Origin: Enterobacteria phage Kha5h
Strand: one strand, 5' to 3'
Length of the DNA: 64,000 nucleotides
Sequence record: NC_054905.1
The notes beneath the pieces were generated by a model. The model was not told where the DNA came from. It saw nothing but the letters and a program-made list of their open reading frames with translations, and did no database searches. This document shows positions 61,718 to 64,000 of the stretch, piece after piece; the stretch's first letter is position 1, and the number at the start of each line of letters is the position of its first letter. The position numbers and the translations under genes were made by a program.

Positions 61718-62034
61718 AAGTCCTCAACTTGAAAATCGTCTTTAAACAATCGGTTAACTATATGAGCTATTATATCACCATGACACGGCTTTGGTTTACA
61801 TGTGCATCCTAGCCTCATTCCACGTAAAGGCTCTAAATGTGCTTTAGTTATTTCTCCGGATTTAATTCGACGTATAAAATCTTTTTTGAATAATTCAATG
61901 GCAGCCTCCCGGCTGCCAGCATCTTTACCGACGTAATTTCCCCAAAATGTATCACGGTGAATATTAACATCAAAGTCGGATTTATATTTATTCACTACCC
62001 GGCATAGACGGCCCGCGTGGTAATAATTCGTCAT
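61708..62034 (-). CDS. Conserved Cys/His-motif protein (nrdA.1-like)
   Basis: 108 aa; motif [12 protein letters not shown] near C-terminus. Confidence 0.6.
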
Positions 62035-62263
62035 ATTGTTTTTCCGTTAAAACAGTAATATCATAATAACAATCAGAAGAAGTTTTAACTGTAGAAATTT
62101 TATTATCAAAATACTCACGAGTCATTTTATGAGTATAATATTTTTTGCCATAAATGATAATAGGCTGTTCTGGTCCTGGAACTTCTAACTCGCTTGGATT
62201 AGGAAGTGTAAAAAGAACGACACCAGAAGTATCCTTAAATCGTAAAATCATATATCCTCTCAA
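61988..62263 (-). CDS. Hypothetical protein (nrdA.2-like); start uncertain
   Basis: 91 aa ORF overlapping the downstream gene by 47 nt. Confidence 0.5.
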
Positions 62264-62274
62264 TTAAATTAAAA

Positions 62275-63135
62275 TTACACCGCCATCTTTCCTTTCAATA
62301 CACCGTGGGACTGATAATCTTTGAGAACGAAATCCCGTGCTGTCATATATTCAGTTAACCAATACATTTGAGTTTCAGTATCGCATTGACTGAATCCATT
62401 AGGCCAATTAATACTGAGTTTGCATAGATCCATAGGAGTTCTATTTAATATCTCTTTGCATTGCTCAATATGGTTAGAATAAATGTGTGTATTACCACCC
62501 GAGAATACCAAATCGCCCGGAACTAGTTCACACATGTCAGCAACAATATGCAAAAGAGCAGCATAACTCGCGATGTTAAATGGAAGACCGAGGAAAACAT
62601 CTACCGAACGTTGATACCATTGGAGGTCAAGGTATCCGTTACGCACATTAAACTGATAGAACATATGACAAGGAGGTAATGCCATCTGCTTGAGTTCAGC
62701 TGGATTCCATGCCGACACAATTTGACGCCTATCGTTGGGAAATGTTTTAATACGATTAACAACTTCTACAATTTGATCTACACCACCAAAATCACGCCAC
62801 TGTTTTCCGTAAATTGGACCAAGTTCACCGCTATGATAACCTAAGTCTTTGGCCTGGTTTTCGTAGTTTTCATCCCAAATTGTTTTTCCTGCAATTAAAG
62901 ATCCATGAGTACGTTGACGTAAATCATTTACGTTAGTACTTCCTGATAAGAACCACAATAACTCAGAAATACATGCATTCCAGGCGAGCTTCTTAGTCGT
63001 TACTGCAGGAAAACCTTTAGTTAAATCCCAGCGTAATTTAGTACCGAACAAAGCAATTGTTCCTGTGCCTGTTCGGTCATCAGTTTCATAGCCATTTTCA
63101 AAAATGTCTTTAATTAAATCTTGGTATTGTTTCAT
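62275..63135 (-). CDS. td: Thymidylate synthase, uninterrupted
   Basis: 286 aa continuous ORF; catalytic LPPCH motif and DLQWYQRSVD region. Confidence 0.92.
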   Translation of the reverse strand: MKQYQDLIKDIFENGYETDDRTGTGTIALFGTKLRWDLTKGFPAVTTKKLAWNACISELLWFLSGSTNVNDLRQRTHGSLIAGKTIWDENYENQAKDLGYHSGELGPIYGKQWRDFGGVDQIVEVVNRIKTFPNDRRQIVSAWNPAELKQMALPPCHMFYQFNVRNGYLDLQWYQRSVDVFLGLPFNIASYAALLHIVADMCELVPGDLVFSGGNTHIYSNHIEQCKEILNRTPMDLCKLSINWPNGFSQCDTETQMYWLTEYMTARDFVLKDYQSHGVLKGKMAV

Positions 63136-63179
63136 TTAGTACCTTATATAAATTATAATACATTTTATGAAGCTAATAA

Positions 63180-63539
63180 TCAATACGGTTTAGCATCAAA
63201 TTTTCTTTCGATTTCAGGAGTGAAATATAATTCTTTACCACGTTTGGAAAAACGACCAATAATATGATAATTATTCTCATCAAACGTGATATTACCAATA
63301 TCCATAGCTTTCAACCAAATATCGATATTTCTATCTAGTTTTATATCAAAATTCCAATACGGAGAACTATTACCAAAAATACTACAAGCGGATTCAGTGA
63401 AACAACTGCTATAAATCTTGTCTTTAGGAACTACTAATTGATAGACGCCTTTAATAAACTGAGGACCCTGCCATTTTGGTTGTTTCGCGTCTTTTTCTAA
63501 TAGAATAGGGTAATAATTAAAATTCATATTTTCCGCCAC
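63180..63539 (-). CDS. Hypothetical protein between td and frd; start may be the ATG 12 nt inside the track ORF
   Basis: 119 aa track ORF begins at a non-ATG codon; no recognisable motif. Confidence 0.5.
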   Translation of the reverse strand: MAENMNFNYYPILLEKDAKQPKWQGPQFIKGVYQLVVPKDKIYSSCFTESACSIFGNSSPYWNFDIKLDRNIDIWLKAMDIGNITFDENNYHIIGRFSKRGKELYFTPEIERKFDAKPY

Positions 63540-63547
63540 GTGTTATT

Positions 63548-64000
<453 letters not shown>

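Follow-up and report, generated by a model that had tools for sequence, protein, structure and literature searches.

Gene A, a short open reading frame between the genes for dihydrofolate reductase (frd) and thymidylate synthase (td) of Enterobacteria phage Kha5h, is probably an old resident of this slot in Tevenvirinae. Our overall reading is that of an expressed accessory gene that T4 probably lost through a 416-bp deletion. We came to gene A through a sequence-only reading of the window, a 64,000-nt stretch of record NC_054905.1, which had noticed an extra ORF of 115-119 aa between td and frd. That ORF is indeed present, and both its homologs and the selection acting on it mark it as a real gene.

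The window is a segment of a Tequatrovirus genome: over bases 62000-64000 it shares 99.6% identity with Citrobacter phage CrRp10 and 98% with several Escherichia phages. The minus-strand gene order is frd, gene A, td, an nrdA.2-like ORF, an nrdA.1-like ORF, and nrdA. We identified frd through CrRp10 (99.6% identical), in which a 582-nt CDS is annotated as dihydrofolate reductase. The features of the junction are:

63548..64000, minus strand: 3' part of frd (dihydrofolate reductase), with its TGA stop at 63550..63548 and its start past the window end
63540..63554, minus strand: left 15-nt direct repeat, TAAATGAAATAACAC, read from the sequence; an endpoint of the 416-bp T4/T6 indel
63180..63539, minus strand: 119-aa ORF from the alternative, in-frame GTG start of gene A at 63539
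63180..63527, minus strand: gene A, 115 aa and 348 nt, from ATG 63527 to the stop (TGA) ending at 63180
63136..63179, minus strand: 44-nt spacer between gene A and td, holding the td Shine-Dalgarno sequence (AAGG)
63124..63138, minus strand: right direct repeat, TAAATGAAACAATAC, spanning the td start ATG at 63135..63133
62275..63135, minus strand: td (thymidylate synthase), 286 aa, an intronless, divergent allele, from ORF translation and comparison with CrRp10

The 348-nt ATG version of gene A is the one chosen by the GenBank annotators of CrRp10, T6, and AugustSocin. Ahead of ATG 63527 sits GGCGGAAAAT, which could be a weak ribosome-binding site, and GTG 63539 has nothing comparable. One metagenomic ortholog has a valine codon at the ATG position, which means that its start must be further upstream. 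The exact start of gene A is slightly uncertain. Its product has a predicted mass of 13.6 kDa and a pI of 8.5.

Gene A is a real gene rather than a chance open frame because it matches PHROG 1928, has full-length tblastn matches in 553 phage records, and shows purifying selection. The match to the PHROG 1928 profile (E = 9.5e-36) places residues 8-115 on profile positions 2-125 of 126, which amounts to a full-length family match. Location between frd and td, an empirical property of the PHROG 1928 members seen here, was also shared by gene A. The gene is already known in the sense of being catalogued: it has been deposited hundreds of times as 'hypothetical protein' and belongs to an existing PHROG, where hundreds of proteins encoded at this position match it exactly or almost exactly (e.g., YP_010067382.1 of T6 and AUV59603.1 of CrRp10). 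PHROG 1928 is a family with no assigned function, Pfam model, or NCBIfam model. The description of the ORF as having no recognizable motif holds, since searches of the gene A protein against Pfam, NCBIfam, PADLOC, and the PDB sequences were all empty. Searching Pfam with 25 members of the gene A/B family (B being a paralog described below) and the PDB with the 25-sequence profile likewise gave nothing beyond scattered single Pfam hits at E of at least 0.045. The family profile identified no further paralog of gene A in the 64-kb window or a 12-kb T4 region (hmmsearch), and literature searches on the frd-td interval and the PHROG numbers found no paper on gene A.

We next consider how widely gene A is distributed. 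A T-even copy with at least 90% amino-acid identity was present between frd and td in 361 of the 553 records. Carriers at this level include T6, RB7, RB33, wV7, ime09, and Mosigvirus PTK, along with many Tequatroviruses of Shigella, Yersinia, and Citrobacter. The other 192 records hold diverged copies with less than 60% identity and belong to Jiaoda-, Kanagawa-, Moon-, and Roskildevirus. In every case examined, isolates and metagenomic contigs included, gene A was located between dihydrofolate reductase and thymidylate synthase. This position was shared by the diverged copies of Jiaodavirus KP1 and Metamorpho, Kanagawavirus PEi26, Kosakonia phage 305, Roskildevirus FBB1, Moonvirus CF1, and Klebsiella phage kv_tblp8, as well as by the copies on three metagenomic T4-like contigs. 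Identity to gene A fell with phage relatedness, from 93% in Mosigvirus to 63-66% in metagenomic relatives, 43-46% in Kanagawavirus, and about 30% in Jiaodavirus. The sequence-only reading had interpreted the ORF as a lineage-specific insertion into an otherwise conserved operon, which is not supported given that approximately 361 T-even and 192 distant records carry gene A in the slot.

An exhaustive phmmer search of 1.84 billion cluster representatives returned only 17 matches, of which 16 were stand-alone proteins of about 100-116 aa. The remaining match was weak, had a length of 838 aa, and was taken as spurious. Domain fusions can hint at function, but our profile searches recovered stand-alone proteins only. 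An apparent fusion of 195 aa (P0012 in OR941409.1, L018:3001-3588), with a last 40 residues of Jiaodavirus-type A and an unrelated N-terminal part, was discounted because the record is fragmented and rearranged. In its surroundings td and nrdA are fragmented, and the region looks rearranged or poorly assembled.

Sequence divergence points to strong purifying selection on gene A. Relative to T6 and AugustSocin, the window's copy has 13 synonymous and no nonsynonymous differences (dS 0.24, dN 0), and the chance of all 13 being synonymous if they were random over sites is about 3e-10. The dN/dS ratio was 0 versus T6 and AugustSocin, 0.03 versus RB33, approximately 0.05 versus Mosigvirus copies, and 0.10-0.13 versus the metagenomic relatives with 63-66% identity. 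For frd, comparison with T6 and AugustSocin gave a dS of about 0.2 (0.19-0.21) and a dN of 0.043-0.047, a ratio of about 0.23. For td, compared with AugustSocin only, dS was 0.80 and dN 0.12, a ratio of about 0.15. With a dN/dS of roughly 0-0.05, gene A is among the most strongly constrained small genes of T-even phages.

These data bear on a functional label that has been attached to gene A. The GenBank product is given as 'putative homing endonuclease' in the BASEL phages AugustSocin and FelixPlatter (MZ501052, MZ501065), and such a gene, free-standing or degenerate, could account for the difference from T4 in a neighborhood where homing endonucleases abound (I-TevI within td, with mobE and I-TevIII close by). 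According to the BASEL paper, genes were annotated by whole-genome alignment together with blastp, InterPro, and Phyre2, and the paper offers nothing specific in support of the label for gene A. None of the 25 family members had a Pfam hit to HNH, GIY-YIG, LAGLIDADG, or PD-(D/E)xK domains, there is no invariant acidic, His, or Cys residue, and the protein is only 115 aa in size. Orthologs are stable in the same slot across genera, with divergence tracking phage relatedness, and the dS of gene A equals that of flanking frd rather than reflecting the sporadic, phylogeny-independent distribution and recent spread of a homing gene. The seg and mob genes of T-even phages resemble gene A in being present or absent between close genomes and in lying between conserved genes, but gene A lacks any nuclease motif or domain, has been inherited together with its flanks, and keeps its position across genera. 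We consider a homing origin very improbable and the label unsupported, as neither nuclease domain, catalytic residues, nor homing-like distribution was found.

Gene A is one of several genes found at this location. Across the phages compared, the frd-td slot holds zero to three genes: A, its paralog B, and an unrelated 68-aa gene C. The combinations were:

A, B, and C: metagenomic contig L019 and Klebsiella phage kv_tblp8
A and B: Kanagawavirus, Moonvirus, and metagenomic contigs L016, L017, and L020
B' followed by A: FBB1
A only: most Tequatrovirus (including the window and T6), Mosigvirus PTK, the related NHEP36, and Jiaodavirus
B only: Tegunavirus
C only: JS98 and Tequatrovirus fPS-65
Empty: T4 and its closest kin, Tequatrovirus JK45, and Dhakavirus WG01

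Paralogy of B and A was shown by profile-profile comparison, with hhalign probabilities against the A profile of 97.9% for g236 of Tegunavirus phiR1-RT, 97.7% for ORF-252 of PEi26, and 94.2% for the 151-aa protein of FBB1. Gene B had hmmsearch E-values of 1e-7 to 1e-14, also falls in PHROG 1928 (E of 1e-16 to 1e-37), and occurs in 123 records. Its main difference from A is an insertion of about 20 residues directly after the invariant Q-x-K-W motif. Gene C, which belongs to PHROG 9550, is unrelated to both A and B. It is found in L019, kv_tblp8, and JS98, following B in the first two, and matched 238 records in total, with copies at about 43% identity in rV5-like phages (Phapecoctavirus). In JS98 (NC_010105, L013:1295-1501), C is an unannotated 68-aa frame (PHROG 9550, E = 4e-45) in what appears as a 200-nt frd-td 'gap', and it overlaps both the frd stop (ATGA) and the td start (TAATG).

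Genes A, B, and C are usually joined to frd, td, and each other through ATGA-type stop/start overlaps in A-rich sequence. Junctions of this type were observed for frd|A in NHEP36 and L019, B|C and C|td in L019, frd|C in JS98, and frd|td in T4 and WG01. The near-identical A-rich junctions (TAAATGAA...) would supply 8-9 nt of microhomology at each gene boundary, and this microhomology could permit the precise loss of whole genes from the slot. Under such a mechanism, lineages would keep different subsets of a fuller ancestral A/B/C cassette via differential loss, and complementary remnants of the slot are what differential loss from a fuller cassette predicts.

The slot of Aeromonas phage phiAS5 (L014:776-1714) contains tandem paralogs of 161 and 150 aa (PHROG 12587) plus a 99-aa ORF. 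A 161-aa phiAS5 protein, which we equated with the first tandem paralog by its length, was a Foldseek match to the gene A model (E = 0.019, probability 0.99). Despite this structural similarity, its comparison with the family profile was not significant (hhalign), and phiAS5 was not counted as a family carrier. A very distant relationship to gene A is possible.

T4 itself presents an empty slot. As the sequence-only reading had stated, frd and td are directly adjacent in T4, where the frd stop and td start share a 4-nt ATGA overlap (AAATGAAAC) with no gene between them. T4 and T6 share 96.5% identity over frd and 97-98% over td with its intron, and a single clean indel of 416 bp, with 15-nt direct repeats (TAAATGAAAYAAYAC) at its ends, sets them apart here. 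In the window, the left and right repeats lie 416 bp apart and match at 13 of 15 positions, and the T4 junction, GTATATAAATGAAACAATACC, is an exact recombinant of the window's two copies. We searched for the T4-type junction with a 39-nt probe and a strict E-value cut-off. An earlier 50-nt probe could not separate the two states because the flanking repeats let its halves match ORF-bearing phages separately. Only 32 records had the T4-type junction, all of them T4 strains or very close kin: T4T, RB55, RB59, vB_EcoM_112, HY03, SG1, G28, F1, FN, JEP6, FL12, FL18, and G2133 in addition to the T4 strains proper. Since gene A is widespread at the slot and the T4-type junction is limited to these records, T4 is the exception among T4-like phages. 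Occurrence of the ORF at the same place in T4 and its close relatives had been named as evidence that would speak against an insertion. In the event, T4 does not have it and its close relatives do, under the name 'hypothetical protein'.

The indel could in principle have arisen in either direction. We favor a microhomology deletion of 416 bp as the source of the overlapping frd/td junction of T4. The direction was inferred from three observations: divergence of A tracks phage relatedness, its dS equals that of frd, and the T4-type junction is confined to a tight clade. Complementary A/B/C subsets in different lineages likewise argue for an old resident that was lost in T4. In the alternative direction, the overlapping frd/td arrangement would be ancestral, gene A would have inserted at the td start in an ancestor of Tequatrovirus and Mosigvirus with a target duplication of about 15 nt, and T4 would have kept the empty site. 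The ORF and its spacers are flanked by the 13/15-identical repeats, as expected for an insertion element, although such repeats are equally expected as the substrate of a microhomology deletion. The left repeat contains the frd stop overlapped by a two-codon ATG-AAA-TAA mini-frame (63551..63543), so that in Tequatrovirus it resembles a second copy of a start region. The same arrangement could result from an insertion that duplicated its target, and this useless mini-frame resembling the td start is a possible scar. ATGA-overlapped frd/td junctions also occur outside the T4 clade, in Dhakavirus WG01, Tequatrovirus JK45, and T5-like phages, which counts against the direction of a deletion.

Set against an insertion is the presence of A in the same slot of at least six other genera and metagenomic relatives with identity tracking relatedness. 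Furthermore, the dS of gene A versus T6 (0.24) matches that of frd (0.19-0.21), as if the gene had diverged along with its flanks. The A-only, B-only, C-only, and A+B+C states conform to differential loss, NHEP36 has frd joined to A by ATGA without a duplicated segment, and the T4-type junction is restricted to 32 near-identical records. Nor does the 416-bp unit encode a transposase, integrase, or endonuclease, as gene A is its only content and has no such domain. Taken together, we judge an insertion unlikely and a deletion in the T4 lineage probable.

The spacer between gene A and td differs in length among genera. It is 44 nt in Tequatrovirus versus 13-15 nt in Mosigvirus PTK and the related NHEP36, and the extra ~30 nt contain a promoter-like match. 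Specifically, positions 63150..63173 have a weak similarity to T4 middle promoters (aGCTTcA-N12-TAATTT, also TATAAT), in which aGCTTcA resembles a MotA box and TATAAT/TAATTT occurs at middle-promoter spacing. The pattern was not enriched over chance in the window, and we regard it as a consensus match only. Among five other Tequatrovirus copies, the spacer had no substitutions and one 1-nt indel.

Two side observations concern the ends of gene A. At its 3' end, a short frame on the minus strand (63173..63195; ATG-CTA-AAC-CGT-ATT-GAT-TAT-TAG, MLNRIDY*) overlaps the gene and starts like gene B of metagenomic contig L019 (MLNLIKIDEQKKW...), whose start likewise overlaps the end of A. This frame may be a vestige of a deleted gene B, or it may merely be constrained by the coding of gene A. 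At the 5' end in Mosigvirus PTK (L023:6-623), an extra A in the A run before the frd stop (AAAAATGA) shifts the frame such that the annotated frd runs 11 nt into gene A, which could reflect a genuine C-terminal extension or an error in sequencing the homopolymer.

We then turned to structure for clues about function. Six residues were invariant across 25 A and B sequences (Q16, W19, G27, G91, K95, and G97), and Y29, F93, and F102 were nearly so. K18, N79, and R92 were invariant or nearly invariant in smaller A-rich alignments and are the majority residues in the 25-sequence consensus. Among the 25 sequences, there was no invariant His, Asp, Glu, or Cys that would suggest catalysis. AlphaFold models of A (pLDDT 80, pTM 0.75), predicted as a small beta-barrel, and B (pLDDT 85, pTM 0.76) share a core of strands b1, b2, and b3, one helix, and a long b4-b5 hairpin, to which the B model adds a strand-helix-strand insertion after the Q-x-K-W motif. 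Structural matches were weak, and both lists of them were dominated by OB folds, including HIN, Teb1, RPA14/32, PriB, S1, Stn1-Ten1, and RuvA domain I, and Foldseek against viral models returned only other uncharacterized proteins of T4-like phages. The order of elements in the A model, b1-b2-b3-helix-b4-b5, is the same as in OB-fold domains (RPA14/RPA32, PriB/SSB, S1, HIN, and Teb1). In OB folds, the b1-b2 loop and the b4-b5 turn form a ligand clamp. The conserved aromatic and basic residues of the A model are in the b1-b2 loop (Q16, K18, and W19) and the b4-b5 hairpin (G91-R92-F93-x-K95-x-G97), and we infer from the model that they may line the equivalent of these clamp loops.

On this basis, the product of gene A could tentatively be described as a slightly basic, non-enzymatic small beta-barrel with a binding function. 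Its production would coincide with that of Frd and Td early in infection, and its most likely target would be a nucleic acid or a protein that takes part in nucleotide metabolism and DNA synthesis. Because T4 manages without it, gene A is expected to be dispensable in laboratory hosts. Since T4-like genomes keep their gene order throughout, the constant place of gene A next to frd and td says little about a functional link. For a possible place in the dNTP-synthetase complex, the only support comes from the two neighbors, with which gene A is co-located and, in several genera, shares stop/start overlaps. A doubtful extension is that A and B are accessory subunits or regulators of the phage thymidylate cycle, for example OB-like proteins that bind Td, Frd, or td mRNA and tune dTMP supply. 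If so, loss from T4 would explain how such a factor was missed in sixty years of T4 genetics.

About equally likely as the binding-protein model is a role of A (and B) in counter-defense or host takeover, in which these proteins would be host-interaction accessories using the strongly expressed early frd-td operon as a landing site and unrelated to thymidylate or DNA metabolism. Presence/absence polymorphism within a single genus (A only, C only, or none), tandem paralogs, and the sharing of the slot by the unrelated gene C, found in rV5-like phages too, would be no less expected of a host-interaction 'moron'. T4 also thrives without A, and divergence between genera is fast, with about 30% identity where Td keeps about 70%. 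Conversely, gene A is under very strong purifying selection among T-even phages (dN/dS 0-0.05), a scale at which nothing points to an arms race. No PADLOC or known anti-defense model was matched, in a library that covers defense rather than anti-defense proteins. We retain both possibilities, neither being more than tentative.

Gene A has parallels among the small ORFs frd.1 (DUF5417), frd.2, frd.3, nrdA.1 (DUF4326), and nrdA.2 of T4. Like A, these are short, early, and packed between genes of nucleotide metabolism, often with overlapping stops and starts, and they are conserved between genera, not needed in the laboratory, and without an assigned function. However, they have no sequence relationship to A (hmmsearch with the A profile on the window and the 12-kb T4 region). 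They also differ in being present in T4, whereas A is absent and hence never entered the T4 gene list.

When placed in the context of T4 as a reference, these results have modest importance. The frd-td junction of T4 is often quoted as a textbook case of overlapping genes, and the T4 reference genome is atypical at precisely this junction, where most of its relatives have between one and three additional small genes. The slot is also an example of how ATGA overlaps can serve as microhomologies through which whole genes drop out without harm to their operon neighbors. Gene A has no known function, fold family, or publication. Its strong constraint and its absence from the model phage make it a sensible choice for knockout or pull-down experiments.

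Finally, the td gene adjoining gene A in the window is itself unusual. Window td has 81% nucleotide identity to AugustSocin td, with 50 amino-acid differences, and its 3' third, downstream of the T4 intron position, is only 56-65% identical at the nucleotide level. Only 23 phage records have a Td at least 99% identical to that of the window. On either side of this divergent td allele, identity is 96%, both in gene A and in the stretch downstream of td.
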